A DNA stretch of 64,000 nucleotides. Source: a phage. Each line of letters opens with the position of its first letter. Positions within the stretch are counted from its first letter, which is position 1. The translations under genes and the position numbers were made by a program. The stretch lies in sequence record OZ335962.1; one strand, given 5' to 3'. The notes under the pieces were generated by a model. The model had not been told where the DNA came from, ran no database searches, and was given only the letters and a program-made list of their open reading frames with translations. Of this stretch, positions 19,257-40,435 are shown piece by piece.

Positions 19257-19299
19257 ATTGTTTTCCTCTTTAATCGTCAGCAGTATTGCCGATAGTTGT

Positions 19300-19329
19300 A
19301 TAGTACCACAATCCTTGTGGTATGTAAAC
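19300..19329 (-). promoter_or_regulatory. early promoter (GTTTAC, 18 nt, TACTAT); copy 1 of a repeated promoter module
   Basis: Minus strand GTTTACATACCACAAGGATTGTGGTACTAT with an A/T-rich upstream element. Confidence 0.55.
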
Positions 19330-19351
19330 CGTTTTATGAAAAATTTTTGAA

Positions 19352-19379
19352 ATAAAAAAGGGGACCTCTAGGGTCCCCA
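19352..19379 (-). terminator. rho-independent terminator downstream of gene 32
   Basis: Minus strand GGGGACCC-UAGA-GGUCCCC followed by UUUUUUAUUU. Confidence 0.7.
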
Positions 19380-19400
19380 ATTAATTAGTAATATAATCTA

Positions 19401-20309
19401 TTAAAGGTCATTCAAAAGGTCATCCAGGTCTGTGTCATCAGCACTAGATGAACTGCCAGAGCTTGAGCTCATAAAATCATCTTCAGTTTTTGTATTGAAG
19501 TCATCAACATTGAATGCATCCAAATCATCAGCAACTTTATCAGCTTTCTTAGCGGCAGTCGCTGCGGCACCACCCATAGCAGCAGTTCCCATAACTTGAC
19601 TGAACTTAGTGCTCAGTTCTTCAAACGATTTGAATTTATCTTTAGAAGTCATTTCAGAAAGGTCAACCATTTGTTCGAACAGTTCTTTCTGGAAAGATTC
19701 ATCATCAATGTTTGGAATCGCAGATTGATTCAGGAATTTAGATTCATCGTAGTTACTAAAACCAGAAACTTGTTTAACTTTCAGTACAAAGTTAGCACCT
19801 TCCCACGGACAAGTTACATCAACCGGAGTTTCACCCATTTCAACATCAACTGCAATCATTGCATTGATTTTATCCCAGATTTTCTTACCGAAACGGTATT
19901 TAAATACTTTACCTTCATTTTCTGGAGCAGCTGGGTCTTTTACTACAAGAATGTTAGCCCAGTAAGAAGTTTTACGTTTAACAAGACCGTATTCTTTATT
20001 GTCAGTGTTGTACAAATCATTTTTACTGATATACTGACATACTGGGCAAGAATCGTAATCACCGTGGGTAGATGAACAGTTTTCAATATACCATTTACCG
20101 TTTTTCTTGAAACCGTGATTTACAAGAATTGCGAATGGTGCTTGTTCATCATTTTTGGACGGAAGAAAACGAATTACTGCTTGACCGTTACCCGCATTGT
20201 CGAGTTTCAATTTCCACTCGCCTTTATCTTCAGAAGAAAAACCACCTTTATTTCCAGCCAGTTTAGCCATTTGCGCAGCGAGTTCAGCAGTAGATTTACG
20301 TTTAAACAT
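19401..20309 (-). CDS. 32: gp32 single-stranded DNA-binding protein
   Basis: 302 aa; near-identical to T4 gp32 from memory, including the acidic serine-rich C-terminal tail. Confidence 0.95.
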
Positions 20310-20340
20310 TTTTATTTCCTTTTTAATTTAATTAACAGTT

Positions 20341-20375
20341 GGTGCTATGACGATGTATGACCTCATAGCTGGTCA
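20341..20375 (-). promoter_or_regulatory. gene 32 translational operator pseudoknot
   Basis: Minus strand UGACCAGCUAUGAGGUCAUACAUCGUCAUAGCACC matches the T4 gene 32 autoregulatory pseudoknot as I recall it; an unstructured A/U-rich leader follows to the AUG. Confidence 0.7.
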
Positions 20376-20392
20376 GTGAGATAATTATAATC

Positions 20393-20400
20393 TATTTATA
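20393..20400 (-). promoter_or_regulatory. late promoter TATAAATA upstream of gene 32
   Basis: Plus strand tatttata is the reverse complement of TATAAATA. Confidence 0.5.
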
Positions 20401-20408
20401 ATAAGCAA

Positions 20409-21062
20409 TTAATACTTGCAAGATTTCACAGTTTCAATAAAAACACTTTTAGCTTTCTGTGAATCAATATTTAAAATTTTTCTATAAGCCTTTAACTTTA
20501 TAGAATAATTATTCCAGACTAAATTATCAGTCTGTTCATCATGTTTATCAATTATATTTAAAAACGAATCAAGCAAGATAAACGTTTCAAACGAAATTAT
20601 ATTCGATTGAAGTAGTTTAAAAATATAACTTGATTGGACTTTTGGATTATACTCAAAGATTTCTTTAAAAGCAGAAACTTCAACTTTTTTACTAAAATAA
20701 TAAATGTTGCGAATATCTTCTTCAAACTTAAATTTAATTTGCTTTAAGCGTCCGATATATTCACGATAAAACACAAGTGCATCAGCGTCAGAGATGTCAC
20801 CAATCCAAGCATCTTGGTTAGCAACAAGATTGCTTATAAAGATTAAAGCAAGTTCCTTTAATTTATATTTTTCTGATAACTTCTGGAAAAAATACTTATC
20901 CCTTCGCTTTTGATAAGCGGCATCAGACACCCGCATGCACCAATTATACTTAATTACATCATACTTTCCATTCATATGTTGTTTTATCATTAAGTATAAT
21001 TTATAAACTGATTTACCATCAATGTATCTTTCACCACCAGCAGGCATGCGGAGTTTAATCAT
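20409..21062 (-). CDS. 59: gp59 helicase-loading protein
   Basis: 217 aa, same length as T4 gp59; position between gene 33 and gene 32. Confidence 0.85.
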   Translation of the reverse strand: MIKLRMPAGGERYIDGKSVYKLYLMIKQHMNGKYDVIKYNWCMRVSDAAYQKRRDKYFFQKLSEKYKLKELALIFISNLVANQDAWIGDISDADALVFYREYIGRLKQIKFKFEEDIRNIYYFSKKVEVSAFKEIFEYNPKVQSSYIFKLLQSNIISFETFILLDSFLNIIDKHDEQTDNLVWNNYSIKLKAYRKILNIDSQKAKSVFIETVKSCKY

Positions 21063-21397
21063 AGTAGAAAATCTAATGTATTAGTTTTTTCACAACGAAC
21101 AACAGAAGGACGTAAAAGATTTTCGTCAATAGCTTCTGACTGAATTTTTTCAATTATACCCGAAGGAATAAATTTAGCAAATTGAGTTTCAGGAATAGAA
21201 TTTTCTTCTAAGAATGCTGTTGTAGCTTCAAGATAACTCATTCCAAACTCTTCTACCATTTTTTCAATAATAAATCCATTTTCTTGGCGGTCAAGAAGCT
21301 TTGCAATTTCATCCTTTTCTTTCTTAATTGAAAGTTCTTTTTCTGAAAGACCGGTCTCATCGACCGGACGAATATCATTTAGAGAAAACTGTGTCAT
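21059..21397 (-). CDS. 33: gp33 late-transcription co-activator
   Basis: 112 aa from MTQFSLNDIRPV; the track start is a TTG 3 codons upstream. Confidence 0.8.
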   Translation of the reverse strand: MTQFSLNDIRPVDETGLSEKELSIKKEKDEIAKLLDRQENGFIIEKMVEEFGMSYLEATTAFLEENSIPETQFAKFIPSGIIEKIQSEAIDENLLRPSVVRCEKTNTLDFLL

Positions 21398-21644
21398 AAA
21401 GTTCAACTACCTCTTCAGTTTCAGCTTCAAACACATCACGGTTATCTTTATGATACAAAGCTAACAGACGATTAAACATCTTACCATCAACGCCAAGTTC
21501 ATCTTTGGCACGAATTCGAATATCTTTAATCAATTCATTATAACCAGAAATTTTCAGTTTATGATCAGATGCTTCTTTAATAAATTTAGCCAAGTCTTCG
21601 CCATGGATAGCTTCATCAAATTCAACCATTTCTTTTTTAGCCAT
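21375..21644 (-). CDS. dsbA: DsbA double-stranded DNA-binding protein
   Basis: 89 aa at the T4 dsbA position between rnh and gene 33. Confidence 0.75.
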   Translation of the reverse strand: MAKKEMVEFDEAIHGEDLAKFIKEASDHKLKISGYNELIKDIRIRAKDELGVDGKMFNRLLALYHKDNRDVFEAETEEVVELYDTVFSK

Positions 21645-21652
21645 TATTCACC

Positions 21653-22570
21653 TCAAAATTCATTAATGCTATTAGTTAATTTAGAAAGACCCGCTTTTAC
21701 AAAATATGAATAAATTTTGCCACGCGGTGGTAATTTATATGAATTATAGTAATTCACAATGTTTGAAGCAATATTATCAGGAATATAATCAAAATCAATT
21801 AGAACTAAATTTTCTTTATAACGATTATATTCAGATTCTGTGAGAAGCACCTTAGCTTGCTCACGGTCATTAGCAATAGCTTCAACAATAGAGGTTTTCA
21901 TTGAAGGAGTTCGTTCACCTTCAACTCTAGTAAACCAAAAGTCAGACCGTACTTTAACTGAAGCAACGTTATCCTTTTTATCACCTTTAAGGATTTTAGT
22001 CATACAGTCAATTTCAGCAGAACCGCTTTTAATTTTAACCCATTTCTTGTGCATCGGTGACCATTGCTTAACATTTGGGTATTTGTGAAGTTGAGTAAAG
22101 TCACCATCCGACGAAATGATTAAAATCTTATGTCCTTCTAAAGAGAACTTTTTAACAAGAACAGCAATATGGTCATCTGCTTCATACTTATCAATATCCA
22201 TAACGATGTATGGCATATAAGCTTTCAATTCATCTATAACTTTATGACTGGATTCAAAATAACCTTCCCAGTCCCAAGTAGATTCTTCTCGTGCTTTTCC
22301 GCGGTTTTTCTTATAATAATAAGCGAAATCACGGCGCCAGTATCCAGATTTCGCGTTATCAATACACAGCACAATTTTAGTGTATCCAAGAGTTTTTGCT
22401 TTTTTGACATTAAACTTAATTGAGTTCAATATCAAATGACGAACCATTGATAAATTAATTTTTTCTTTATCTGGGAAGTTTACCAGAGCAGTTGAAAGCG
22501 CAATCTGACTAAAGTCAATTAAGCAAATTCCTTCTTTGTAATCTTCATCCAGCATCATTTCTAAATCCAT
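21653..22570 (-). CDS. rnh: RNase H (FEN-family 5'-3' exonuclease)
   Basis: 305 aa from MDLEMML; flap-endonuclease-like acidic clusters. Confidence 0.9.
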   Translation of the reverse strand: MDLEMMLDEDYKEGICLIDFSQIALSTALVNFPDKEKINLSMVRHLILNSIKFNVKKAKTLGYTKIVLCIDNAKSGYWRRDFAYYYKKNRGKAREESTWDWEGYFESSHKVIDELKAYMPYIVMDIDKYEADDHIAVLVKKFSLEGHKILIISSDGDFTQLHKYPNVKQWSPMHKKWVKIKSGSAEIDCMTKILKGDKKDNVASVKVRSDFWFTRVEGERTPSMKTSIVEAIANDREQAKVLLTESEYNRYKENLVLIDFDYIPDNIASNIVNYYNSYKLPPRGKIYSYFVKAGLSKLTNSINEF

Positions 22571-22598
22571 ATGAACCTCGTTCAATTAGTGAGATTTC

Positions 22599-22627
22599 TA
22601 TTATATACTCCAAATCTTAAAGTAAAC
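22599..22627 (-). promoter_or_regulatory. early promoter for rnh
   Basis: Minus strand GTTTAC followed by TATAAT at 16-18 nt spacing. Coordinates approximate. Confidence 0.5.
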
Positions 22628-22630
22628 AAG

Positions 22631-22638
22631 TATAAATA
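22631..22638 (+). promoter_or_regulatory. late promoter TATAAATA for gene 34
   Basis: Exact TATAAATA about 35 nt upstream of the gene 34 ATG. Confidence 0.7.
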
Positions 22639-22672
22639 CTTATTATTGAAAACACAATAGGAGCCCGGGAGA

Positions 22673-25600
22673 ATGGCCGAGATTAAAAGAAAGTTCAGAG
22701 CAGAAGATGGTCTGGACGCAGGTGGCGATAAAATAATCAACGTAGCTTTAGCTGATCGTACCGTAGGAACTGACGGTGTTAACGTTGATTACTTAATTCA
22801 AGAAAACACAGTTCAACAATATGATCCAACTCGTGGATATTTAAAAGATTTTGTAATCATTTATAATAATCGTTTTTGGGCAGCAACGGATAATATTCCA
22901 AAACCTGCTGGAAGTTTTAATAGAATTCGTTGGAAAGCATTACGTACTGATGCTGTATATACAACCGTATCATCTGGACCGTATCAATTAAAATCCGGAG
23001 AAGCAATTTCAGTAGATACGTCAGTTGGTAATGACATTGAGTTTACTTTACCACCTTCTCCGCTCGATGGAGAAACAGTAATAATTCAAGATATCGGTGG
23101 AAAACCTGGTATAAATCAGGTTAAAATAAGTTCTTCAAATCAGAGCATTGTTAATTTTAGAGGTGAACAAGTACGTTCAGTTTTAATGACTCATCCAAAG
23201 TCACAGATGATATTCATTTTTAATAATCGTTTGTGGCAAATGTATGTTGCTGATTATAGCAGAGAAGCTGCAATTGTTACTCCATCGACTGCGTATCAAG
23301 CACAATCTAATGATTTTATCGTGCGTAGATTTACTTCCGCAGCGCCGATTAATATTAAACTTCCGAAATTTGCTAATCATGGCGATATTATTAATTTCGT
23401 TGATTTAGATAAATTAAATCCTCTTTATCATACAATTGTCACGACATATGATGAAACAACTTCAGTACAAGAAGTTGGAACTCATTCCATTGAAGGCCGT
23501 ACATCGATTGACGGTTTCTTGATGTTTGATGATAGTGAAAAATTATGGAGATTGTTTGACGGGGATAGTAAAGCACGTTTACGTATCATAACGACTAATT
23601 CAAACATTCGTCCAAATGAAGAAGTTATGGTATTTGGTGCGAATAACGGAACAACCCAAACAATTGAGCTTCAGCTTCCAACTAATATTTCTGTTGGTGA
23701 TACTGTTAAAATTTCCATGAATTACATGAGAAAAGGACAAACAGTTAAAATCAAAGCTGCCGGTGAAGATAAAATTGCTTCTTCAGTTCAATTGCTGCAA
23801 TTCCCAAAACGCTCAGAATATCCACCTGAAGCTGAATGGGTGACTGTTCAAGAATTAGTTTTTAACGGTGAAACTAATTATGTTCCAGTTTTACAACTTG
23901 CTTATATAGAAGATTCTGACGGAAAATACTGGGTTGTACAACAAAACGTTCCAACAGTTGAAAGAGTTGATTCTTTAAATAATTCTACTAGAGCAAGATT
24001 AGGCGTAATTGCTTTAGCTACACAAGCCCAAGCTAACGTCGATTTAGAAAATTCTCCACAAAAAGAATTAGCAATTACTCCAGAAACATTAGCTAACCGT
24101 ACTGCTACAGAAACTCGTAGAGGTATCGCAAGAATAGCAACTACTGCTCAAGTAAATCAGAACACTACATTCTCTTTTGCTGATGACCTTATCATCACTC
24201 CTAAAAAGCTGAATGAAAGAACTGCTACAGAAACTCGCAGAGGTGTTGCTGAAATTGCTACGCAGCAGGAAACTAATACAGGTACTGATGATACTACAAT
24301 CATCACTCCTAAAAAGCTTCAAGCTCGTCAAGGTTCTGAAACATTATCGGGTATTGTAACTTTTGTATCTACCGCAGGAGCTACTCCAGCCTCTAGTCGT
24401 GAATTAAATGGTACAAATGTTTATAATAAAAATACTAATAATTTAGTTGTTTCGCCTAAAGCTTTGGATCAGTATAAAGCTACTCCAACACAACAAGGCG
24501 CAGTAATTTTAGCAGTTGAAAGTGAAGTAATTGCTGGACAGAGTCAAGAAGGATGGGCAAATGCGGTTGTAACGCCAGAAACGTTACATAAAAAAACATC
24601 AACTGATGGAAGAATTGGTTTAATTGAAATTGCTACGCAAAGCGAAGTTAATACAGGAACTGATTATACTCGCGCAGTCACTCCTAAAACTTTAAATGAC
24701 CGTAGAGCAACTGAAAGTTTAAGTGGTATAGCTGAAATTGCTACACAAGTTGAATTCGACGCAGGCGTCGACGATACTCGTATCTCTACACCATTAAAAA
24801 TTAAAACTAGATTTGATAGTACTGATCGTACTTCTGTTGTTGCTCTGTCTGGATTAGTTGAATCAGGAACTCTCTGGGACCATTATACCCTTAATATTCT
24901 TGAAGCAAATGAGACACAACGTGGTACACTTCGTGTGGCTACACAAGTTGAAGCTGCTGCAGGAACATTAGATAATGTTTTGATAACTCCTAAAAAGCTT
25001 TTAGGTACTAAATCTACTGAAGCGCAAGAAGGCGTTATTAAAGTTGCAACTCAAGTTGAAACTGTTACTGGAACGTCAGCAAATACTGCTGTATCTCCAA
25101 AAAATTTAAAATGGATTGTGCAGAGTGAACCTACTTGGGCAGCAACTACTTTGGTAAGAGGTTTTGTTAAAACTTCATCTGGTTCAATTACATTCGTTGG
25201 TAATGATACAGTTGGTTCAACACAGTCATTAGACTTGTACGAGAAAAATAGCTATGCAGTATCGCCATATGAATTAAACCGTGTATTAGCAAATTATTTG
25301 CCGTTAAAAGCAAAAGCTGTAGATAGTAATTTATTGGATGGTCTAGATTCATCTCAGTTCATTCGTAGGGATATTGCGCAGACGGTTAATGGTTCACTAA
25401 CCTTAACACAACAAACGAATCTGAGTGCCCCTCTTGTATCATCTAGTACTGCTACGTTTGGTGGATCAGTTTCGGCAAATAGTACATTAACTATTTCTAA
25501 TACTGGAACAGCAACTCAATTGATTTTTGAGAAAGGACCTCAAACTGGAACGAACCCAGCGCAGACGATGACTGTCAAAGTGTGGGGAAATCAATTTAGT

Positions 25601-27728: not shown

Positions 27729-28379
27729 ATGGCTGATTTAAAAGTAGGTTCAACTGTGGGTGGATCTGTCATTTGGCATCAAGGAAATTTTCCATTGAAT
27801 TCAGCCGGTGACGATGTACTCTACAAATCATTTAAAATATATTCAGAATATAACAAACCACAGGCAGCTGATAACGATTTCGTTTCTAAAGCTAATGGTG
27901 GTACTTACACCGGTCCAATTACTATTAATTACGGGGTAAATAGTTATCTTCAATTAAGTAATAATGAAACCCCCATTCGAATTCGTTCTGGTGGCGGTAC
28001 CGGTAATACTCTTGTAATCGGTGGCTCTTCTGGTGGTATTAGTTTTAGACCTGCAGGTAGTGAAATCACTACTGGACAAATTACTATTACGCCAGAAGGT
28101 TTGACAACATTTACTAGGGCTGTAACGGCTCCATCTGTAACTGTTACATCTACTCCTTCAGCAGCGTCTGATGTTACTCGTAAAGATTATGTCGATGGAG
28201 CAATAAATACTGTTACGGCAAATGCGAATTCTAGAGTTTTGCGTAAAGGTGACACCATGACAGGTAATTTAACAGCGCCAAACTTTTTCTCGCAGAATCC
28301 TGCATCTCAACCCTCACATGTTCCACGATTTGACCAAATCGTGATTAAGGATTCTGTTCAAGATTTCGGCTATTATTAA
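27729..28379 (+). CDS. 36: gp36 long tail fibre distal connector
   Basis: 216 aa at the gene 36 position. Confidence 0.85.
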
Positions 28380-28387
28380 GAGGACTT

Positions 28388-31372
28388 ATGGCTACTTTAA
28401 AACAAATACAATTTAAAAGAAGCAAAACTGCAGGTCAACGTCCTGCTGCTTCAGTATTAGCCGAAGGTGAATTGGCTATTAATTTAAAAGATAAAACAAT
28501 TTTCACAAAAGATGACTCAGGCAGTGTTATAGAATTAGGTTTAAAATATGGAGGAACAATTGATGGTTCTTTAACTGTTAATGGAAGTATAGTTGGAAAT
28601 TTAACAGGTAACGCTGCAACTGCAACGAAATTAAAAACAGCACGAAAAATTAATGGTATATCCTTTGATGGGTCAAAAGATATCACGCTAACTCCATCTG
28701 ACATAAATGTCAATAGCACAACGTTTATAAAAAATAACGGCGAATTACCGGTTGATGCTAATTTAGATGAGTATGGGCCTGTTGAAGAATATCTTGGAGT
28801 TTGGTCGAAAGCAACTTCAACCAACGCTCAACCAGCAAATAAATTTCCAGAAGAAAATGCTGTAGGTGTGCTAGAAGTATTTGTGTCCGGTCAATTTGCT
28901 GGTACTCAGAGATATACAACCAGATACGGAAATGTTTATATTCGTTCCTTGACTGCTACATGGAACGGAGTAAATGGTCCGTGGAGTGTGTGGCGAAATA
29001 TTCAATCCGGTACTCGTCCACTGTCAACAACAATTGATCTTAATGATCTAGGAGGTGCTGAACACTTTGGCTTGTGGAGGAATAGTTCAAATTCCATTGC
29101 CACCTTTGACAGAAATTTCCCAGAAGAGGGGTCGTCAGCTAAAGGTCTTTTGGAAGTATATGAAGGGGGAAGCTATTCTCGTACACAAAGATATACGACC
29201 ATGTTTGGTGTTGTTTATACTCGCTGTCTTACTGCCGCGTGGGATGCTACTGCTCCTAAATGGGGACCGTGGCAACAAGTCGGTAATGTCACACCAGCGA
29301 CTTTCTATGATGGAAACCTGAATGATTTTAAAACTCCTGGGTTATATAACATTTTAGGCACTGACAAAGTTACTAACCGTCCAGTCGCAGAAGGCGTTCC
29401 GGTTGAGATGACCGCATTGCTTGAGGTTAAACAACGTGCTTCCGGCGCCGCTATTTTCCAACGTTTCACTACCGCAGGAACGGGATCTACTACTCGTGGT
29501 CGTGTTTTTGAACGTGCAATGACAAATAATATCTGGGGAGATTGGCACGAAGTATATACATCTTATTCTCTGCCAATTACTTTGGGTATGGGTGGTATTA
29601 AAGCTCAATTAGCGGAGTTAGATTGGCAAACCTTTGATTTTGTCCCTGGTAGTATGTTTAGCGTTCCTTTGAATAAAATAAAGAACATGCCAGCAAATAT
29701 GGATTGGGGGACGATTGATGGAAACTTGGTTATGTTTTCTGTCGGTCCTAGCGAACATACTAGCACAGGGCGTACTGTTCAGGTTTGGCGCGGTACTGTA
29801 TCCCAGACAAACTACCGCTATTTTGTCGTTCGTGTATTCGGTAATTCAGGAAATAGAACTTGCACAGTTCGTCGTGTTGTTCTTGAAGATGGTCGCCACA
29901 AATGGACAGCGCAGCAAGATTTTAATGGCGCAGTTAACTTCGGTGCTCCTACCAATTTTAACTCTACTGTTAACCTTAATAACACTACCACTTTTAAAAC
30001 AGAAGTTAAATTCCGCTCATTGAATGCATTTAAAATGTACGGCGGTAAGTTTGGCGCAATTTTCCGTAATGATGGAGAGAGTCTTTATATTCTTTCCACC
30101 GACGAAGATGATCAAGATGGAAACTTTAATACAAATAGACCTTTCCGTTATGAATTGAGAACTGGTGATGTTACTTTAGGTGGTACTAGTGGTGCTAACG
30201 TTTTAAAATTAAAACGTGATTCTCTCACCGCATTTTTTGGTGGTGATATTAATATAAAAGGCTTGATGACTTTTGACGCCGGACGTTTAGGATCACGAGA
30301 TTATTTTAAATTTAACCATTGGGGTGATAGTAATAATGCGCGTGATAACATTATTCAGTTAGAAGACAGCAAAGGAGTTCATTTTTCCACTGAACGTACT
30401 TTAGCGACTGGTGCAATTAAGACTAAATTTTTTGGTGAAGTTGAATCCGATGGTAGATTGATTATTAAACGTCCGGGTGATTCTATTGTATTATCAGCAC
30501 CTGCTAGTAATTCTTTGCATATTCGTGGTGACGTAGACGGGACTAATAACTGGTATATTGGTAAGGGTGGTGATGATAATGGATTAGCGTTCTATAGTTA
30601 TGCTACTAATGCTGGTGTATACATTACAAACGCAGGGGATATCACGCTAAGTCCAAAAGGCGTCGAAATGGCTCATGTTAATAACGTTCGATTATATGTT
30701 CATGGTGAACGTTGGACCGCTAGTCAACCAGGTGATTGGGGCAACCAATGGCGAGTAGAAGCGCCAATATTCGTCGATCATGGTTATGTTGGATCAGATA
30801 GCTATTATCCAATTATTAAAGGAAGAAGTGTAGTCACCAATCAAGGGTATGTAACTGCCGTCGATCTTGGTATTCGTCGTATCCCTAATAATTGGGGACA
30901 AGCAATTATTCGTGTTGGATCTGCGGAGGCTTCTCCTGATGCTGGTCATCCTAACGCGGTATTCGAGTTCCACTATGATGGGTTCTTTTATGCACCAGGA
31001 AATGGAAGTTTTAATGATGTGTATATTCGTTCCGATGGTCGTCTTAAGATTAATAAAAAAGAGCTAGAAAACGGAGCGGTTGAAAAAGTTTGCCGACTGA
31101 AAGTTTATACTTACGATAAAGTTAAGTCTATTAAAGACCGTAGTGTTATTAAACGTGAAGTTGGTATTATTGCGCAGGATCTTGAAAAGGAATTGCCGGA
31201 AGCTGTATCTAAAGTTGAAGTTGATGGATCTGATGTTTTGACAATTTCTAACTCTGCTGTGAATGCTCTTTTAATTAAGGCCATTCAGGAAATGAGCGAA
31301 GAAATTAAAGAATTGAAAACACCTTTCTTCACTAAAATTGCTCGTAAAATTAGCAATTATTTTAAATTCTAA
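28388..31372 (+). CDS. 37: gp37 long tail fibre distal subunit with a C-terminal intramolecular-chaperone-like domain
   Basis: 994 aa; N-terminus [21 protein letters not shown]; C-terminal about 130 aa resemble self-cleaving chaperone domains (T2-type). Confidence 0.9.
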
Positions 31373-31404
31373 CAACAAGGGGCTTTGCCCCTTTGGAGAA
31401 AATT

Positions 31405-32205
31405 ATGGCAGTAGTTGGTGTTCCTGGTTGGATTGGAAGTTCATCCGTAAATGAAACAGGACAACGATGGATGAGTCAAGCGGCTGGTCAATTAAGATTG
31501 GGTGTTCCTTGCTGGATGAGTCAATTTGCAGGTCGCTCAAGAGAAATTATTCACACACTTGGAGCAGACCATAACTTCAATGGTCAATGGTTCCGAGATA
31601 GATGTTTTGAGGCAGGTAGTGCACCTATAGTGTTTAATATCACAGGAAATTTGGTATCATATTCTAGAGATGTTCCTTTATTCTTCATGTATGGAGATAC
31701 ACCAAATGAATATGTTCAGTTGAATATTATCGGTGGAGCTCATATGTGGGGCAGAGGTGGACAAGGTGGATGGACTCATTCTGGTGGAGATGGTAATGGT
31801 CAACAGGGTGGGCATTGTATTCAAAATGACATTGGTGGTCGATTAAGAATTAATAATGGTGGAGTAATTTGTGGCGGTGGCGGCGGTGGTGGCGGTATCG
31901 CTTATCGTCCTCACTCTGGTGCAAACTGGCAAGATATTGGTGGCGGTGGAGGAAGACCATTTGGCCCAGGAGGTGGCGGTGGTTATTCAGGAGGTGCTGC
32001 TTCTTATGATGGCCCAGGAGGCGGCTATAATTATGGTAATGCTCACTCTGGTCAGGGTGGCGACGCTGGCGGAAATGGACAAAATGCCTGGAATGATGGC
32101 GGTAAAGTACTAAAAGTCGGGGCTGGCGGGGCTGCAGGTTATGCTGTAATAGGGTCTGCTCCAACATGGCAAAATGTTGGAGTAATATATGGTCCAAGAG
32201 TATAA
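31405..32205 (+). CDS. 38: gp38 receptor-binding adhesin (T2/T6 type, glycine-rich)
   Basis: 266 aa from ATG with SD GGAG; N-terminus [13 protein letters not shown]...[10 protein letters not shown] and several polyglycine tracts (GGGGGGGG). Confidence 0.85.
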
Positions 32206-32236
32206 TTTTGAATAAATATCCTTAAAAGGAGGGTCT

Positions 32237-33166: not shown

Positions 33167-33197
33167 TAACTATACCACTCAATTAGTTGACTTTGCT

Positions 33198-33227: not shown

Positions 33228-33328
33228 TGGTCTGTGGTATTTTCTTCAAAAAATTTTTTCTACGAATTCCTTGAACGACTTACGTTCCTGAGCTACATTA
33301 TGCTCGATTACTTTTTCAAGATTATGAC

Positions 33329-33607: not shown

Positions 33608-33690
33608 AGACCTTCCCCTTATGTTTCTGTTTGCGATTAGATTCTTTAAACGCTTTCTTCTTATCCTTATGGACAGAAGCTTTATTAAAA

Positions 33691-34991: not shown

Positions 34992-35001
34992 TATTTATTC
35001 C

Positions 35002-35637
35002 TCACAGTTCAGATGCTACGGTGATTACTGCTTCAATGTTTTCTGCCGAGCGTTTAATGTCAAGATACACATTGCCGTTTTTAGCGATTTTACATGACAT
35101 TCCAATATCAGTAAATTTCTGAATATGGTGTTCCATCATTTTGTATCCAAAAATTCGCATATTTCCATTGTTATTAATTTCAAAATTACGAATTCCGTGA
35201 GTGCGTTTTTCTAAAATAGCAAGATAGTTACTGCGGTAAGTTTCAACCTTTTTAAGAACAAATCCATTTTCATCTAAAAGTTTTAACATGAAGTCTTTAT
35301 CTTCTTCCATATCGGAAGTAATCTCGCGAGCTTTACGAGTTGCTCGTTTTTTCAGTAGTTCAGGAGCATTTTCCTGCGCGTATAAAGTTGCTGCATTTGA
35401 AATAATATCCTGAGCTTCGCCTGTAATGATTAATCCATCACCAGATTTCTCCACCAGGCCTTTTTTAATCAATACCCCAATATTACTATTAACTACTGCG
35501 TTACCTAAATCTGGATGCACCTCACGAACTTCTGCGGCTGTAATGAAATCTTTCTTAGCAATGGTAATTAAAATCGCAGCAGTTTTTTCATTCAGAACAT
35601 CGTTAGAAGCTTTGATGATGTAAGTTACTTTAGACAT
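35002..35637 (-). CDS. motA: MotA middle-transcription activator
   Basis: 211 aa, same length as T4 MotA; positioned before gene 52. Confidence 0.85.
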   Translation of the reverse strand: MSKVTYIIKASNDVLNEKTAAILITIAKKDFITAAEVREVHPDLGNAVVNSNIGVLIKKGLVEKSGDGLIITGEAQDIISNAATLYAQENAPELLKKRATRKAREITSDMEEDKDFMLKLLDENGFVLKKVETYRSNYLAILEKRTHGIRNFEINNNGNMRIFGYKMMEHHIQKFTDIGMSCKIAKNGNVYLDIKRSAENIEAVITVASEL

Positions 35638-35674
35638 TTTAATCTCCGTTTCAGTTCATTTATTTGATAGGTCT

Positions 35675-35703
35675 ATAGTATCATGTTTAAAGCAGAAGTA
35701 AAC
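35675..35703 (-). promoter_or_regulatory. early promoter for motA
   Basis: Minus strand GTTTAC, 17 nt, TACTAT. Confidence 0.55.
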
Positions 35704-35742
35704 ACTTTTTTGCACTCTTTTTCAAGAGCTCTAATAAAGTAC

Positions 35743-35970
35743 TTACTTAATGTTCAGATTACGAACTTCGATTTCGTCTTCATGGGCAAAATCAAACTGT
35801 TTGAATTCTGTGTCACCTTTAAATTTAAAAATCATTGTGAAGAAAGTCAGAACACCGGGTTTTTCTTCACGAACTCCACAGATATCATATTCAATACCAT
35901 CTACAACCAGTTTGTTAGCAGTCAGAGCATTTTTAGCTTTAACGATTTCGTTTTCGATTTTAAATTTCAT
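35743..35970 (-). CDS. hypothetical early protein
   Basis: 75-aa ORF with its own promoter. Confidence 0.45.
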   Translation of the reverse strand: MKFKIENEIVKAKNALTANKLVVDGIEYDICGVREEKPGVLTFFTMIFKFKGDTEFKQFDFAHEDEIEVRNLNIK

Positions 35971-36018
35971 TTTTTGTATCTCCGGGTTGTTTGTTTCAGT
36001 TCATTTATTTGATAGTTG

Positions 36019-36048
36019 TATAGTACCATAAAGCTTTATGCTTGTAAA
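36019..36048 (-). promoter_or_regulatory. early promoter; copy 2 of the repeated promoter module
   Basis: Minus strand GTTTACAAGCATAAAGCTTTATGGTACTAT; the spacer contains a perfect 14-bp palindrome. Confidence 0.55.
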
Positions 36049-36071
36049 CCGTTTTGTGAAAAAATTTTGAA

Positions 36072-36102
36072 ATAAAAAAAAGGGAGAGCCTCGGCTCTCC
36101 CT
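36072..36102 (-). terminator. rho-independent terminator
   Basis: Minus strand GGGAGAGCC-GAG-GCUCUCCC followed by a U8 run. Confidence 0.7.
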
Positions 36103-36106
36103 AAAA

Positions 36107-36256
36107 TTACTGCATGACTGTGATAACTGTCATGATAACACGTTGAATTCCGAACGCAAGAAGACCTCCTGCTACGGCAGGAACAACACCTAAACCCGCC
36201 AGTAAAATGCCACCAGATACTAATGCAGCGCTTGTAATACCTATGAATGGACTCAT
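36107..36256 (-). CDS. small hydrophobic membrane protein (49 aa)
   Basis: MSPFIGITSAALVSGGILLAGLGVVPAVAGGLLAFGIQRVIMTVITVMQ; its ATG overlaps the gp52 TGA. Below the ORF-track size cutoff. Confidence 0.45.
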   Translation of the reverse strand: MSPFIGITSAALVSGGILLAGLGVVPAVAGGLLAFGIQRVIMTVITVMQ

Positions 36257-37581
36257 TTGATTTCCTCTAAATCTTTGGTGTATTCTGTAACTACATCAGT
36301 AGTTTTCCAATATTCGTTTTCTTCTTTTTTAGCTTTAGCTTCTTCAGCAAGTTTCTTTGCTTCGTCGGAAGTCATATGAAAAATATTCATTCCAACTAGT
36401 TTATCAACATAAGAAGAATACATATCAATTTTAGAAAGTTCTTCGGTCAGTTCTTTGCGAGTTTTACCCTGCACAACAATTTCATCTGAAATTACTTTCT
36501 TAATGAAATGCGCCTTGGCAAAGGCTAAACGAAATGCTGATTCAGTTTCTTTGATTTTGTTATCAATTCGTTTTTGGACATAAGTTTTACGAACTTCAAC
36601 GAAGTCTTTGATTAAATCAACTACGTTATCGTAAACTTGTAGTTTTCCTTTCTCATTAATAACGGTAATATTCTGGGAACGACGCTCAATCAACCCGAAG
36701 TCTTTCATAATTTTTGCATGGCGTTCTTCTTCGTTATCGCTCAAAGAGTATTCTTTACGGAATTTAACTTTAAAGCCAAACCCGTGCTCACCACAAGCAT
36801 CATCCCACATAATGAAGCCTTTATCTTCAAGCGGGTCTAAGATTTTACTCACATAAGTTTCACGATCATACTTATACGGAATCTCAGTGATATTCATTTG
36901 AGTTCGTGAAGTAAACTTGTACGTTCCACGAATTTCATATTGACCGTCAATTTCAACGACTTCACCGCGAAATTCTGGAAATTCTACCTTCGGTTTAGTT
37001 ACTTTCTTTCCTTGAAGAGCTTGCAATACAGCTTTCTTGACAGAAGAAACACTATGAGGAAGAATATAAGTTGCATAACCAGTTGCAATACCGGAAACAC
37101 CATTAAGAAGAACAGTAGGAATAATAGGCAAATAGAAAGCAGGCGGAATGTGTTCTTTATCTTGATGTACCGGAGCATATTCAGTATCTTTATATACGCT
37201 ATAGAAATTTTTACTTACACGAGCAAAAATATAACGACTTGCCGCTGCTTTTTGAACGGTACGAGAACCAAAGTTTCCTTGACCATCTAACAGAGGAAAG
37301 TTATTATTCCAAGTATTAGCCATCAAAGCACCTGCGTCTTGTGCAGAGTTTTCACCATGATGATATCCAAGGTCTGCTACACCACCTGCAATAGAAGCGA
37401 GTTTGTGAAACTTATCTTTATTTCCTCGTGCCAAATCAAGAGCTCGAGCAATAACAAATCGTTGAACTGGCTTAAATCCATCAATCATATTTGGGATAGC
37501 ACGATTTTCAACCGTGTACATAGCATAAGCCAATGCTTCATTATCAATGATACTTTTTAAATCGCGATTATTCAGTTGCAT
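36253..37581 (-). CDS. 52: gp52 topoisomerase II medium subunit (GyrA-like)
   Basis: 442 aa, same length as T4 gp52; N-terminal GyrA-like DNA breakage-reunion region. Confidence 0.9.
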   Translation of the reverse strand: MQLNNRDLKSIIDNEALAYAMYTVENRAIPNMIDGFKPVQRFVIARALDLARGNKDKFHKLASIAGGVADLGYHHGENSAQDAGALMANTWNNNFPLLDGQGNFGSRTVQKAAASRYIFARVSKNFYSVYKDTEYAPVHQDKEHIPPAFYLPIIPTVLLNGVSGIATGYATYILPHSVSSVKKAVLQALQGKKVTKPKVEFPEFRGEVVEIDGQYEIRGTYKFTSRTQMNITEIPYKYDRETYVSKILDPLEDKGFIMWDDACGEHGFGFKVKFRKEYSLSDNEEERHAKIMKDFGLIERRSQNITVINEKGKLQVYDNVVDLIKDFVEVRKTYVQKRIDNKIKETESAFRLAFAKAHFIKKVISDEIVVQGKTRKELTEELSKIDMYSSYVDKLVGMNIFHMTSDEAKKLAEEAKAKKEENEYWKTTDVVTEYTKDLEEIK

Positions 37582-37585
37582 AAAT

Positions 37586-37726
37586 TTACCATACTAGTGA
37601 ATGTAGTGCCATAATAACATCAGAAATGAAAAGCACGACTTGAATTAATCCGAACATTACTCCATAATATAGTGCTACCAATAAAGTAGCAAGGGCTAAT
37701 GAATAGCCCAAGATTTTCTTAATCAT
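37586..37726 (-). CDS. small hydrophobic peptide (46 aa)
   Basis: MIKKILGYSLALATLLVALYYGVMFGLIQVVLFISDVIMALHSLVW; overlaps the upstream small ORF. No clear SD. Confidence 0.35.
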   Translation of the reverse strand: MIKKILGYSLALATLLVALYYGVMFGLIQVVLFISDVIMALHSLVW

Positions 37727-37877
37727 TAGTAGATAACAACACAAATGTTAAATATGCACACATACCCTGGGCTAAAGCTTGTGAAAACACACTGCTAGCA
37801 TCGATACAGATAGTTAAAACACATGCTACTATCCAACAAATAAATGAAATAACTCCTAATAATTTTGCGATATTCAT
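37719..37877 (-). CDS. small membrane protein (52 aa), paralog of the next gene
   Basis: MNIAKLLGVISFICWIVACVLTICIDASSVFSQALAQGMCAYLTFVLLSTND; SD GAGGAG. Confidence 0.5.
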   Translation of the reverse strand: MNIAKLLGVISFICWIVACVLTICIDASSVFSQALAQGMCAYLTFVLLSTND

Positions 37878-37887
37878 AATATTCTCC

Positions 37888-38043
37888 TCAACTATTTTTA
37901 GAACCAATGTACGCGAATAATGATAAAATCGCTAATACGCCCTGAGCTGATGCTTGCAAAAATACTGAAGTTTCTCCAGTTATTACTGTTCCGATGCATA
38001 AAAAGAACCAACAGAAAAAGGTTATACCGTGAACAAATTTCAT
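37888..38043 (-). CDS. small membrane protein (51 aa), paralog of the previous gene (T4 ac/52.1 position)
   Basis: MKFVHGITFFCWFFLCIGTVITGETSVFLQASAQGVLAILSLFAYIGSKNS; SD GAGGAAAA. Confidence 0.5.
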   Translation of the reverse strand: MKFVHGITFFCWFFLCIGTVITGETSVFLQASAQGVLAILSLFAYIGSKNS

Positions 38044-38050
38044 ATTTTCC

Positions 38051-38131
38051 TCACTGGCGTCCGAAGACGCCTTTAGTTTTAAGATTGTTACGATAGAACT
38101 GCATCACGTGTTCGTTATGGAAATTACTCAT
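38051..38131 (-). CDS. stp: Stp peptide (26 aa)
   Basis: Translates [26 protein letters not shown], the T4 Stp sequence as I recall it; TAATG overlap with the ndd stop. Confidence 0.8.
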
Positions 38132-38586
38132 TAGTATGCCTGCAAAACAAATTTAAAGTTATCAGCCAACATACGGTTCATTTCTTCAAGCGTTTGATAC
38201 TCAGAATGATGATTACGAGTAAACGCTAAAGCTAACTGGCCTTTTCCAAATCCAGTCGTTAGAGGTTTCATCTTAGAAGCAGGCAAATAAAATACTGTGT
38301 ATGGAACATTGTTATTTGTAATAGTACGCGCAAGCTGAGACCGACGTTGACGAATATGACTTAGAACTGCACTGAACCCTTGCTTAGAACGCTGATTACC
38401 TACATAAAATCGCGCAGATACACATGGACTATCAAATGGACCACCAAATTTGCTCACTAAAAAGTAAAATCCGGGTTTAGACAAAATGTCTTTATGTGGA
38501 GTTCCAAAAACCCATTCACCGCCCTTGATTGTACCAATAACAGTTGCGCCTGCATTATTCAGATCAGTAACAGTCATGTATTTCAT
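38131..38586 (-). CDS. ndd: Ndd nucleoid-disruption protein
   Basis: 151 aa from [25 protein letters not shown]; SD GAGGAAA. The track's 16-codon extension was trimmed. Confidence 0.85.
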
Positions 38587-38646
38587 ATTAATTTCCTCTA
38601 AATTATTTTCTACTCCAAGGCCGCATGAATACACACGGCCGATAAA

Positions 38647-38862
38647 TTAATCGTCGCAGTCGACGCTCAATTCCCAAAACTCTTCTACGGTATATGTTTC
38701 AGTATCATTTTCAATACAGAAACGTTTATTACTGTTGTTTTCTAAAGTAGCGTTAACTGTCATTTTCTCGCTAGTGCTCTTAAGAGGTGAAATACGAATT
38801 AACTGATCACCATTATCTAAACAAAAAATTTCACCAACTTTTACATCTTTAAAAATTTTCAT
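38647..38862 (-). CDS. hypothetical early protein
   Basis: 71-aa ORF. Confidence 0.45.
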   Translation of the reverse strand: MKIFKDVKVGEIFCLDNGDQLIRISPLKSTSEKMTVNATLENNSNKRFCIENDTETYTVEEFWELSVDCDD

Positions 38863-38977
38863 AATTCACCTCAAGGAGTATAAAATCCGAATGCAGTTGT
38901 TGACCATCCCATCCAATACGGAAAATTTGCACCGACGTAAAACATGAGAATATAAAACCAACCACTCAATAAATTCA

Positions 38978-39175
38978 TCATTTTACACCATTCCAAATTG
39001 TTTCAACCACAGATTTTAAGCCATTTTGATGAATGTCCATTCCGACAACTGCCATCAAATAAATTCCAACTACAACTGAACCTAAGGCGAAAATCAGCAT
39101 GAAAATGAATAAAGCCGGAAAAATATTATCAAAAAACCATTCAACAAATGTAAAAGCACTGCGTTTACGCTTCAT
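38978..39175 (-). CDS. small membrane protein (65 aa)
   Basis: MKRKRSAFTFVEWFFDNIFPALFIFMLIFALG...; SD GAGGAAAA. The track start is a TTG. Confidence 0.45.
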   Translation of the reverse strand: MKRKRSAFTFVEWFFDNIFPALFIFMLIFALGSVVVGIYLMAVVGMDIHQNGLKSVVETIWNGVK

Positions 39176-39182
39176 ATTTTCC

Positions 39183-39296
39183 TCACATAAATCCAAAGTA
39201 AGCGTTTAATACATCAATCATTAAAACGATTGGGAATATACTCAAAACTACTAGTATTATAACTACATTCCATATAGCTTTAACAATCTTTTTCAT
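39183..39296 (-). CDS. small membrane peptide (37 aa)
   Basis: MKKIVKAIWNVVIILVVLSIFPIVLMIDVLNAYFGFM; SD GGAGGAACAG. An early promoter lies inside the track's longer ORF. Confidence 0.45.
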   Translation of the reverse strand: MKKIVKAIWNVVIILVVLSIFPIVLMIDVLNAYFGFM

Positions 39297-39323
39297 TTTC
39301 TGTTCCTCCGTAGTTGATAGGGT

Positions 39324-39356
39324 AATAGTACCACAGAGGAACAGTCTTGTAAACCA
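39324..39356 (-). promoter_or_regulatory. early promoter
   Basis: Minus strand GTTTAC, 18 nt, TACTAT; flanked by a 9-bp inverted repeat CTGTTCCTC/GAGGAACAG. Confidence 0.5.
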
Positions 39357-39539
39357 CTTTTTTAAAAATATTCGTAATAAATGTGAATACCAATCACCAC
39401 TGCCGAAACTTGCGCAACCCACCATGCACAAGCAATAAGTACAGAATTCAAAATTTTCATAATAACCTCATTACAAAAGTAAATGTTAAACAAATTAATG
39501 GAATACTAATTAACCAAACGAAACACCACCATAATGAAC

Positions 39540-39803
39540 TCATAGTTCAATCTCAACGATTTTCATTTCATTACTATTAATAGCCGCTTTAAGACTATCT
39601 GAAAGAATTACACACCAGTGGTCATTCATATGACCATTAACTAAACGTGTAATTTCTTCAGGAGTTGAAAAATAAGGCGTATCAGACTCCCAATGCGATA
39701 GTCCCAAGCGAGTATAAATCATACCTTCATCATCGCTATAATATTCAACTGACACAAACTCATCAGTTATTTTATGTTTAGCGTAATAAAATTTAAATTT
39801 CAT
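39540..39803 (-). CDS. hypothetical early protein (87 aa)
   Basis: From MKFKFYYAKHK with SD GGAGGAG, downstream of the promoter at 39811..39840. Confidence 0.45.
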   Translation of the reverse strand: MKFKFYYAKHKITDEFVSVEYYSDDEGMIYTRLGLSHWESDTPYFSTPEEITRLVNGHMNDHWCVILSDSLKAAINSNEMKIVEIEL

Positions 39804-39810
39804 TTTTACT

Positions 39811-39840
39811 CCTCCGTAGCTGATAGTTGTATAGTACCAC
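39811..39840 (-). promoter_or_regulatory. early promoter; copy 3 of the repeated promoter module
   Basis: Minus strand GTTTACATACCACAAGGACTGTGGTACTAT. Confidence 0.55.
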
Positions 39841-39877
39841 AGTCCTTGTGGTATGTAAACCGTTTTGTGAAAAATTT

Positions 39878-40435
39878 TTAAATGGAAAGATACCATCCAT
39901 TGTAGTTGCTTTTTCTTACAACCTTACGAAGGTCTTCTCTGTCACCGATGAACTTCGGAGTGTACTGGATGACACCTGGATGAATTTCTTTAGTGTTGAA
40001 TATAATTATACAGTCAGCGACCTGATGATTCAGAATGGGCCCTAGATTTATTCCAGAACCGTATGGATACTCTCCGCTGCATCCGGTTGTTACCGAAATC
40101 CAACGTGAGTCAGTTTGATGTGTTTTGACTTCTACACGAAGCCCGCAGTATCTTGGATGCGCCAATACATCCCATGCATATGTATACGGGTCATTAACAT
40201 CCTCTTGCCCTTTGTTAACATAGCCGCTTAGCCAATCTGCTACAAAAAATTCTGCGTACACCGCGATACGACATCTTTCAATAACTTCTGCTTTATCCTG
40301 GTTCGGGTTTTGTTTTAAAGAGTATCTTGCTGTATCAGCAATTTTGACCTTCATTTCACTAGTCAAGTCACTGTTCGATAGGGTAAATGTCGGAATCTGA
40401 AATAGTCTCTGTAAACCCGGATTCGTTTTCTGCAT
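39878..40435 (-). CDS. denB: endonuclease IV
   Basis: 185 aa, same length as T4 DenB; position between ndd and rIIB. Confidence 0.8.
   Translation of the reverse strand: MQKTNPGLQRLFQIPTFTLSNSDLTSEMKVKIADTARYSLKQNPNQDKAEVIERCRIAVYAEFFVADWLSGYVNKGQEDVNDPYTYAWDVLAHPRYCGLRVEVKTHQTDSRWISVTTGCSGEYPYGSGINLGPILNHQVADCIIIFNTKEIHPGVIQYTPKFIGDREDLRKVVRKSNYNGWYLSI

Follow-up and report, generated by a model that had tools for sequence, protein, structure and literature searches.

The stretch of phage DNA analysed here (sequence record OZ335962.1; all 64,000 nucleotides of it are called the window) contains a series of early promoters of the T4 type, three of which are near-copies of one another, and this paper concerns the inverted repeats in and around these promoters. 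The window derives from a Tequatrovirus (T4-like phage). Positions 19000–23000, where rnh, 32, 59, 33, dsbA, and 34 are found, share 98.5% identity with Tequatrovirus isolates. When mapped by blastn to T4 (NC_000866), the window aligns with T4 127.0–168.9 kb and then 0–23.6 kb, with indels. The early genes lie on the minus strand. Exact matches to GTTTAC-N16-18-TAnnnT number 20 on this strand and 0 on the plus strand; the sequences quoted in an earlier reading of the same DNA, which used the letters alone (the sequence-only reading), are therefore the reverse complements of the promoters.

The promoters have in common with T4 early promoters the GTTTAC −35 element, the TG-extended TAnnnT −10 element, an A/T-rich UP element, the minus-strand orientation upstream of early genes, and a Shine–Dalgarno sequence (SD) and ATG located 25–50 nt downstream. 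The three copies show no difference from the T4 early (sigma-70, UP-element) promoters in the consensus of Liebig and Ruger and of Wilkens and Ruger (summarised in PMC2988021 and PMC1524935), and the T4 orthologues at 146875, 163673, and 167086 fit the same early-promoter pattern.

Three copies of an early-promoter cassette

The words GATAGTTGTATAGTACCA (18-mer) and GTAAACCGTTTTRTGAAAAA (20-mer) each occur exactly three times in the window, against 0.03 expected by chance, and the three repeats noticed in the sequence-only reading are thus real. Copies 2 and 3 are 80% and 94% identical to copy 1, respectively (Table 1), and the other early promoters of the window show 63–67% identity to it. 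Copy 3, previously put at 39803..39865, lies about 17–19 nt further to the right. The homology spans about −60 to +9 and includes the UP element TTTCAAAAATTTTTCACAAAAC, GGTTTAC, the spacer, TACTAT, and the leader ACAACTATC. In all three copies, the A/T-rich UP element is present at about −40 to −60, and TTTACA and a TACTAT preceded by TG are separated by 17 nt (the spacer is 17 or 18 nt depending on the count, 18 when counted from GTTTAC). All three also face an early-strand ORF, with an SD and an ATG within about 50 nt. The −35 element, the TG-extended −10 element, the spacing, the UP element, and the orientation bear out the assignment to early promoters of the sigma-70 type.

Copy 1, which maps to T4 146875, stands past the end of gene 32 and is the promoter of the frd.3 homologue at 19029–19256. 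Copy 2 drives a 75-aa ORF (35743–35970) that is not in T4. Copy 3 lies past denB, and the ORF that it drives (87 aa, 39540–39803) is missing from T4 at that place. The intrinsic terminator of gene 32 stands directly upstream of copy 1, and another terminator stands upstream of copy 2. A scan upstream of copy 3 gave no terminator, just a weak AATGGA/TCCATT pairing, and the denB stop codon lies 17 nt ahead of the −35 element there. A second promoter lies directly upstream of motA. Its leader repeats that of copy 2 (35648–35684 versus 35993–36029, a 37-nt direct repeat with 92% identity).

These arrangements correspond to the promoter-early stem-loop (PeSL) cassettes described in PMC2839356 and, for the T4/PST pair, in PMC4122927. 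Both comprise a repeated intergenic stem-loop terminator, an AT-rich stretch, an early promoter, and an SD/ATG, and both adjoin indels or ORF swaps between close relatives. Copies 1 and 2 follow an intrinsic terminator, and both are therefore PeSL cassettes. Copy 3 differs in being without a convincing upstream stem-loop. The three repeats are paralogous copies of the known T-even early-promoter/PeSL cassette. The remark in the sequence-only reading that repeated modules are substrates for recombination is right and is already in print for PeSL cassettes: their recombination was shown in RB49/phi1, with crossovers mapped between the −10 element and the SD/ATG (PMC2839356). Crossovers at this position account for the independent assortment of spacers and leaders here. 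Homologous recombination between cassettes would keep the copies alike and would shuffle spacers, leaders, and small ORFs. The three-copy module as such is thus already known, and what the window adds is further instances of ORF insertion and spacer swapping.

Insertions relative to T4 are found at 35684–36005, 39572–39813, and 60188–60518, and each contains one small ORF (75, 87, and 84 aa, respectively) with its own early promoter. They look like textbook PeSL-type ORF insertions. Copy 2 and the motA promoter bracket the first, which is 322 bp long, and copy 3 is located at the second, of about 230 bp. The third ORF, with its promoter, occurs in about 71 of 383 matching phage records.

A further cassette at 47796–47859 (minus strand) is 67% identical to copy 1. 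Its UP element, TG-TACTAT, and leader are intact, the −35 element is a degenerate TATATAC (not GGTTTAC), and it has a straddling repeat of its own (GTTGAT...ATCAAC). It may be a decayed or weak promoter. Terminator hairpins are also repeated in the window: GGGGCCGAAGCCCC occurs in three copies (2422–2447, 40715–40740, and 40944–40969) and GGACTCCCGAAGGAGTCC in two copies with 93% identity (3300–3318 and 56877–56895).

Scans for GTTTAC-N18-TACTATACAACTAT gave 13 stretches in IMG/VR and 36 more in metagenome contigs. Together with the window, T4, and Yersinia phage PYps11T, the family amounts to 73 instances with 24 distinct spacers of about six types. An internal dyad is found in two spacer types alone, namely type A (ataccacaagga[ct][ct]gtgg, about 14 instances) and type B (aagcataaagctttatgg, 10 instances). 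The dyad-free types C (aaccaaagcatactgtgg), D2 (atccttgttcttccatgg and similar), D1, and F together make up about two thirds of the instances. Every spacer type is found with several different leaders, indicating that spacers move between loci. After gene 32, T4 has type B and the window type A; before motA, T4 has type C and the window type B.

The internal dyads of the three copies should be noted, since the sequence-only reading took them for compensatory changes that preserve one symmetry, and hence for a selected structure of the DNA or RNA or a site bound by a dimeric protein. The palindrome CATAAAG/CTTTATG had been read correctly in copy 2 (36027–36040). The pair ACCACAA/TTGTGGT, attributed to both copies 1 and 3, is perfect only in copy 1; the plus strand of copy 3 reads ACCACAG-tcc-TTGTGGT, which leaves a dyad of 6–7 bp with a mismatch. 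The base pairs of type A fall in the register i+j=22 (spacer numbering) and those of type B in i+j=21. Because the registers differ, the two types are not compensatory variants of one helix. The post-gene-32 locus, represented by 12 distinct sequences, carries spacers of types A, B, C, and D2; the dyad reaches 7 bp or more in three of the sequences, is a broken type A in one, and is missing from the other eight. The orthologues of copy 2 have the dyad-free type C spacer. Symmetry is therefore not conserved at promoters orthologous to the three copies, an outcome that the sequence-only reading had itself named as speaking against its proposal. The commonest form of type A (8 of 14) is also its weakest, with a 6-bp stem and a 7-nt loop, two variants are broken, and the perfect 8-bp form is found in this window alone. 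Judging from folding against shuffled sequences, the RNAs of copies 2 and 3 are no more stable than the controls (z +0.14 and −0.57, respectively), while the value of copy 1 (z −3.5) is owed partly to a second hairpin in the leader.

Some of the data nevertheless favour a single symmetric element, selected both in the three spacers and in those of early promoters at large, that acts as a DNA or RNA structure or a dimeric-protein site, for example in shut-off. Internal spacer dyads of at least 7 bp occur in 2 of 15 non-redundant spacers of the window against 0.03–0.07 in the null sets (p about 0.002–0.004), the type B palindrome is perfect in 10 of 10 instances, copy 1 has the low z value above, and it is not fully clear how early promoters are shut off (PMC3014915). 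Excess over composition-matched controls, which the sequence-only reading had expected of the dyads, does not extend to the internal spacer dyads of T4 (1 of 27; p 0.06–0.16), although the dyads treated in the next section do exceed such controls. The arms at different promoters are wholly different (GGTACAGG, GACAAGACT, AGCTGATAGA, CTGTTCCTC, TACCACAA, and CATAAAG), with no half-site common to them. One sequence-specific protein cannot read arms that have no common sequence, and a dimeric-protein operator is accordingly unlikely. In a search of spacer types A and B for a known motif such as a MotA box, just a misplaced near-match, AGCTTTA, was obtained. The comparison of orthologues largely refutes the single-element explanation, which we regard as very unlikely. 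The internal dyads are traits of two of about six interchangeable spacer types, not a conserved structure.

Hairpins straddling the −10 element

Four other dyads, listed in the sequence-only reading as lying at or around the −35 and −10 elements of early promoters, are present within 1 nt of the positions given there. They do not lie between the two elements, and their length had been understated: AGCTGATAGA/TCTATCAGCT is 10 bp long, and with G-U pairs included the helices have up to 15 pairs. In these dyads the 5′ arm is located in the promoter spacer and the 3′ arm past the −10 element, so that the −10 element lies in or beside the loop. These straddling dyads form a class distinct from the spacer dyads of the three repeats, and they are real and selected. 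The members found in the window are listed in Table 1 with the cassette copies.

Table 1. Cassette copies, neighbouring terminators, and promoter hairpins in the window (positions are those of the whole stretch)
Feature	Position	Strand	Details
Copy 1	19288..19351	−	−35 GTTTAC 19324–19329; 18-nt type A spacer; −10 TACTAT 19300–19305; leader ACAACTATC
Copy 1 internal dyad	19304–19322	−	TACCACAA-gga-TTGTGGTA
Gene 32 intrinsic terminator	19360..19378	−	GGGGACC-ctaga-GGTCCCC and T run; directly upstream of copy 1
Copy 2	36008..36071	−	−35 36044–36049; −10 36020–36025; type B spacer with 14-bp palindrome CATAAAGCTTTATG (36027–36040)
Terminator upstream of copy 2	36081..36102	−	AGGGAGAGCC-GAGG-CTCTCCCT and T run
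Copy 3	39819..39882	−	−35 39855–39860; −10 39831–39836; type A spacer; imperfect dyad TACCACA-aggac-TGTGGTA
Second promoter, directly upstream of motA	35648..35703	−	promoter 35675–35703
Gene 30.7 promoter hairpin	2838..2872	−	GGTACAGG/CCTGTACC; promoter 2850–2878; −19.4 kcal/mol, z −5.0
alc promoter hairpin	10229..10279	−	promoter 10256–10285; −18.9 kcal/mol, z −4.7; T4 counterpart 136336
Hairpin AGGGTAGTAG/CTATTACCCT	18558..18589	−	promoter 18567–18596; −16.6 kcal/mol, z −3.6
15-pair hairpin	39300..39344	−	promoter 39325–39354; −23.2 kcal/mol, z −5.3
motB.2 promoter hairpin	49501..49543	−	promoter 49521–49550; −23.7 kcal/mol, z −5.5
modA.2 homologue hairpin	54686..54720	−	−15.4 kcal/mol, z −2.6
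14-pair hairpin, core AGCTGATAGA/TCTATCAGCT	60454..60489	−	promoter 60467–60496; −18.0 kcal/mol, z −4.0
dmd promoter 15-pair hairpin	60942..60977	−	promoter 60955–60984; −21.8 kcal/mol, z −5.3

Some of the hairpins involve the SD or the start codon. In the 15-pair hairpin at promoter 39325, the 5′ arm CTGTTCCTCTGTGGT is in the spacer and the 3′ arm ACTACGGAGGAACAG holds the SD, which is predicted to be paired to pre-start nucleotides with P = 1.00. At the alc promoter, pairing joins the spacer to the leader, the SD (GAGGA) included. At motB.2, TCCTCGGT pairs with the SD-bearing ACTGAGGA via one G-U pair, which is A-U in PYps11T. At the promoter of the modA.2 homologue (54686–54744, minus strand), the −10 hexamer and the next 3 nt (ATGATAGC) pair with the downstream start-codon region (GCTATCAT), and a similar helix is found in Mosigvirus PNJ-6 (L019 36553). 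The 60467 promoter serves the 84-aa ORF missing from T4.

Enrichment was judged against chimeras, in which each promoter's upstream half was joined to the downstream halves of unrelated promoters with composition and consensus kept. Gaprivervirus UPEC01 (L056), which has just three GTTTAC-type matches, was left out of the statistics. Among 35 T4 promoters, Watson–Crick straddling stems of at least 7 bp are found in 15 (1.6 expected), of at least 8 bp in 8 (0.34), and of at least 10 bp in 5 (0.10). Stems of at least 8 bp are found in 5 of 19 window promoters versus 0.13 expected, and in 4 of the 38 sequences of the non-redundant set from all sources versus 0.32 (p=3e-4). The minimum free energy of T4 sense RNA from −32 to +28 averages −12.8 kcal/mol, as against −7.5 kcal/mol for the chimeras (p=1.4e-4). 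Values of −18 kcal/mol or lower are reached by 14 of 35 promoter-anchored 60-nt segments of T4, versus 1.25% of all minus-strand segments and 0.68% of GC-matched ones, and 11 of the 60 most stable minus-strand segments of T4 are early promoters. In the window, 8 of 20 promoters have z of −3.5 or lower (2850, 10256, 18567, 19300, 39325, 49521, 60467, and 60955), with 0 of 200 shuffles as stable.

The hairpins are also conserved. The dmd promoter (window 60955, T4 20612), the T4 mobD.2a promoter (57990), and metagenomic relatives share a 15-pair helix in which 105 of 105 cells are paired. Its seven variable pairs consist of three two-sided changes (C-G to U-A) and four Watson–Crick/G-U switches, from two lineages only; 0 of 500 shuffles score as high, and slid registers are 20–67% paired. 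The SD-covering helix of promoter 39325 and its relatives (11 sequences) is 96% paired. The outermost two pairs break in some of them, and all four internal variable pairs are Watson–Crick/G-U switches. The evidence for symmetry kept through sequence change concerns the dyads straddling the −10 element, not those between −35 and −10.

The gene 30.7 hairpin GGTACAGG/CCTGTACC (2839–2869) is invariant in Tequatro-, Dhaka-, Mosig-, and Gaprivervirus, where the loop and leader vary. The 30.8 stop codon lies 2–6 nt ahead of the −35 element in all genomes with the invariant hairpin, 2 nt in the window. In Mosigvirus AV116, a terminator is located upstream of the 30.7 promoter; the spacer is a different one without the 5′ arm, and a substitution has arisen in the 3′ arm. 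A Mosigvirus stretch has 13- and 14-bp examples in which the 3′ arm is the SD. A single 3′ arm, TACCCTATC, is paired in two ways, either by ATAGGGT beside the −35 element or by AGGGTAGTAG or GATGGGGTAGTG beside the −10 element, and both solutions are found at the same orthologous loci (T4 73572 versus L035 683; window 18567 versus L018 1095). At position 677 of the metagenome contig ULRM01008302.1 (L029), an anti-SD spacer, aagactgttcctctgtgg, is joined to a leader without the complementary GGAGGAACAG. This recombinant promoter indicates that cassette shuffling can part the two arms of a helix.

Mutation by correction of quasi-palindromes is a classic pathway in T4, and the inverted repeats could be a neutral by-product of template switching at quasi-palindromes during T4 replication, with hitch-hiking in recombining cassettes. 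The arms sit exactly at unconstrained promoter positions, and many instances are paralogues spread by recombination, both as expected from such an origin. Template switching predicts perfect Watson–Crick arms, however, and many G-U pairs are seen. The enrichment is 30- to 60-fold over the genome background and chimeras, and arms are invariant in four genera while neighbouring free positions vary. The link to tight junctions described below, and the decay of a hairpin after gain of a terminator, imply context-dependent selection. We consider a neutral origin extremely improbable.

Tight junctions and the case for RNA

The distance from the preceding stop codon to the −35 element should be noted, since it is related to hairpin strength. 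In T4, the gap has a median of 2 nt at promoters with strong hairpins versus 52 nt at those with weak hairpins, and the gaps at weak hairpins often hold a terminator (Mann–Whitney p=0.014; Spearman 0.52, p=0.0036; Fisher p=0.0025). The direction is the same in the window, where it is not significant. At the dmd promoter, the stop codon of gene 41 even overlaps the −35 element. With the −35 element right next to the stop codon of the gene before, transcription that arrives from upstream has to read through. The 5′ arm, moreover, is located upstream of the embedded start, and the helix is therefore formable only in RNA begun further upstream. The helix would form in read-through RNA from upstream promoters and not in RNA from the embedded promoter. 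A device made of promoter DNA has no reason to depend on arriving upstream transcription; the link to the junctions thus favours RNA, and AV116 agrees with this. The link is the strongest argument for RNA. On balance we favour the reading that the window holds copies of a known cassette and, as a separate class, hairpins at tight junctions that probably act as RNA helices, in read-through transcripts only.

The base pairs themselves point in the same direction. T4 stems of at least 12 pairs number 8 when G-U is allowed and 2 when A-C is allowed, and no such bias is seen in chimeras. The energy gain over chimeras is greater for the sense than for the antisense strand (p=0.007), and about half of the helices reach 20–29 nt past the −10 element. 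A count of G-U versus A-C polymorphisms on alifold structures (27 versus 3) was discarded: the antisense control is similarly skewed (14 versus 2), which marks the count as an ascertainment artefact.

The straddling repeats might instead act in DNA, a cruciform or non-template hairpin placing the −10 element in a single-stranded loop for faster opening or as a shut-off target. Hairpin promoters do exist in phage N4, and many arms here are perfect Watson–Crick palindromes centred on the −10 element, of up to 14 bp in T4 and 8–10 bp in the window. The antisense strand, too, folds better than chimeras (p=4e-4), and the strictest tests give no significant difference between the strands. On the other hand, the long helices need G-U pairs, which are A-C on the other strand; these make up 18 of 105 cells in the dmd family, and the 8 versus 2 count in T4 stems agrees. 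The half of the helices that extend 20–29 nt past the −10 element enter the SD, well past any promoter bubble, and strong promoters of the ACAACTATC family are without such a repeat. An action in DNA also offers no rationale for the link to stop-codon distance or for the loss of the hairpin with an upstream terminator in AV116. We judge it improbable and return to the RNA helix.

The function of such a helix may differ between promoters. Out of 16 strong T4 hairpins, 9 are predicted to pair at least 3 nt of the SD with pre-start bases and 7 to leave the SD free. In the window, the SD or AUG is predicted to be paired at 39325, 49521, 10256, and 54715 and not at 2850, 18567, 60467, and 60955. 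In both groups, the arms fill the sole intergenic bases that the promoter leaves free. The best reading of these predictions is a split role. At 39325, 49521, 10256, and 54715, the SD or AUG would be masked, or open only in dependence on upstream translation, so that the downstream gene would be translated freely from the early transcript of its own promoter, and read-through RNA would serve only once the helix is opened. At 2850, 18567, 60467, and 60955, the helix would be an intercistronic cap or insulator, more probably protecting or insulating the 3′ end of the upstream cistron.

PeSL stem-loops have been proposed as attenuators (PMC2839356), and the straddling hairpins could be such a stem-loop squeezed into the promoter, which attenuates or terminates upstream transcription or stabilises the 3′ end of the upstream mRNA, SD masking being incidental. 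The distribution agrees with this: hairpins are found where there is no room (gap of about 2 nt), and roomy junctions have a terminator and an unstructured promoter. The SD is free in the 7 of 16 strong T4 hairpins mentioned above, and SD accessibility equals that of the controls (see below). In PeSL cassettes, the stem-loop lies upstream of the promoter, while the straddling hairpins here span the −10 element and the start site without a U tract. The 8 nt past the helix, however, contain 1.25 T on average versus about 2.6 expected. This observation excludes the straddling helices as intrinsic terminators. To end transcription before dmd or other essential genes located downstream would carry a high cost, and 9 of 16 hairpins include the SD, which is above chimeras. 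The premise of a structure acting at the RNA level is common to this explanation and to the read-through helix, and only the downstream effect differs. We regard the squeezed stem-loop as rather unlikely.

Sequestration of the SD as a general function was rejected. The accessibility of the segment from SD to AUG in long RNA is 0.43, equal to the controls (0.42 in chimeras and 0.43 with shuffled spacers), and SD masking was therefore dropped in this role. Apart from an excess of complete masking, SD pairing probabilities are not bimodal beyond those of individual chimeras.

Several points weigh against the read-through helix, the accessibility values just given among them. The excess of complete SD masking is modest (7 of 30 versus 10.6% of chimeras, p=0.03). 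An unbiased count around Watson–Crick cores gave 30 G-U versus 21 A-C (p=0.26), and in the non-redundant set, stems of at least 12 pairs number 4 with G-U versus 1 with A-C, an asymmetry that is not significant. Several tight junctions, such as those at window 44355 and 60181, are without a hairpin, and read-through is deduced from the absence of terminators. The single Mosigvirus stretch studied shows less enrichment. The promoters were defined by a strict pattern and many of them are paralogues, and the transcription start was assumed to lie 7 nt past the −10 element. Since the window has nominally more type A and type B internal dyads than chance predicts, these dyads may have a minor role.

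Differences from T4, known systems, and implications

Further differences between the window and T4 were observed outside the promoters. Blastn matches of 300 bp or more to T4 are almost absent from the distal tail-fibre region (genes 36–38; window 27907–32212), as expected of a host-range hypervariable segment. The nrdB intron with I-TevIII, nrdB.1 and mobE, the td intron with I-TevI, segG, and segF are missing from the window (12406/12409, 13082–13138, 16267/16268, 20372–20408, and 57185–57257). Gene 56, which adjoins the missing segF, is 77% identical to that of T4. One 606-aa ORF at 44355–46175 (minus strand) stands in place of T4 gene 39, mobA, 60.1, and gene 60, T4 2793–3911 being swapped for 65 bp. 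The large subunit of the topoisomerase thus appears to be unsplit, and the translational-bypass segment of gene 60 (T4 2803–2852) appears to be absent. T4 16825–17725, which holds the dam methyltransferase gene, has no counterpart in the window (57778–57799 / 57831–58007), where the ORFs of genes 56 and 61 are 176 bp apart.

The straddling hairpins resemble several known elements. Intercistronic stabiliser hairpins (REP-type) and the RNase III hairpins between T7 early genes are likewise stable, without a U tract, and located between cistrons of a polycistronic RNA. These do not overlap a promoter, however, and the helices here, at 8–15 bp, are short for RNase III. The early hairpin promoters of phage N4 also place an inverted repeat at a phage early promoter. 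They are DNA hairpins of 5–7 bp, recognised by the virion RNA polymerase, and are themselves the promoter, whereas here the promoter is a normal sigma-70 one and the evidence favours RNA.

Stem-loops before ipIII, ipII, denV, and tk were reportedly described by Valerie et al. in 1986, and these are among the strongest cases here (T4 66498, 65799, and 65413). If so, individual hairpins were probably seen in the 1980s, but not as a rule of early promoters.

The closest likeness in the switch mechanism is found at T4 e, soc, 49, and I-TevI, where a promoter lies within the 5′ arm of an SD-masking helix (PMC3014915). The 5′ arm is upstream of the proximal start, and the long RNA is masked while the proximal RNA is open. 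The geometry at window 39325, 49521, 10256, and 54715 is predicted to be of this type, the start site being assumed. The proximal promoter of e, soc, 49, and I-TevI is a late one (TATAAATA, gp55), which gives a 'late only' effect, whereas the embedded promoters here are early sigma-70 promoters. The 5′ arm here, moreover, fills the −35/−10 spacer, and only about half of the predicted helices reach the SD. The straddling dyads thus vary two themes that are known from T4, namely the PeSL stem-loop and the switch with a promoter in a hairpin.

Helices straddling early promoters are undescribed in the T4 reviews PMC2988021, PMC3014915, and PMC1524935 and in the PeSL papers PMC2839356 and PMC4122927, and the early-promoter reviews PMC2988021 and PMC1524935 make no mention of complementarity between the spacer and the initially transcribed region. 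No map of T4 transcript 5′ and 3′ ends was found in the literature searched. Nor does the literature compared appear to describe the pattern as a genome-wide rule or to link it to tight junctions.

Unusually stable hairpins, with arms that avoid the sigma-70 contacts, enclose about 40% of the early promoters of T4 and 8 of the 20 in the window. A wider generalization is put forward tentatively: wherever an early promoter abuts the preceding gene, T-even phages would as a rule encode an RNA hairpin in the promoter's free positions. If it is true, the same gene would be present on two kinds of mRNA, the read-through RNA with the helix and the RNA of the embedded promoter open, as a general early-phase counterpart of the late-only switch of e, soc, 49, and I-TevI. 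This could also help explain why many early proteins cease to be made when early promoters are shut off despite upstream transcription. For phage engineering, an early promoter deleted or moved at a tight junction takes a helix arm with it, and the expression of both neighbouring genes could change. If the hairpins act in read-through RNA, the choice of promoter would set the translation or stability of early messages.

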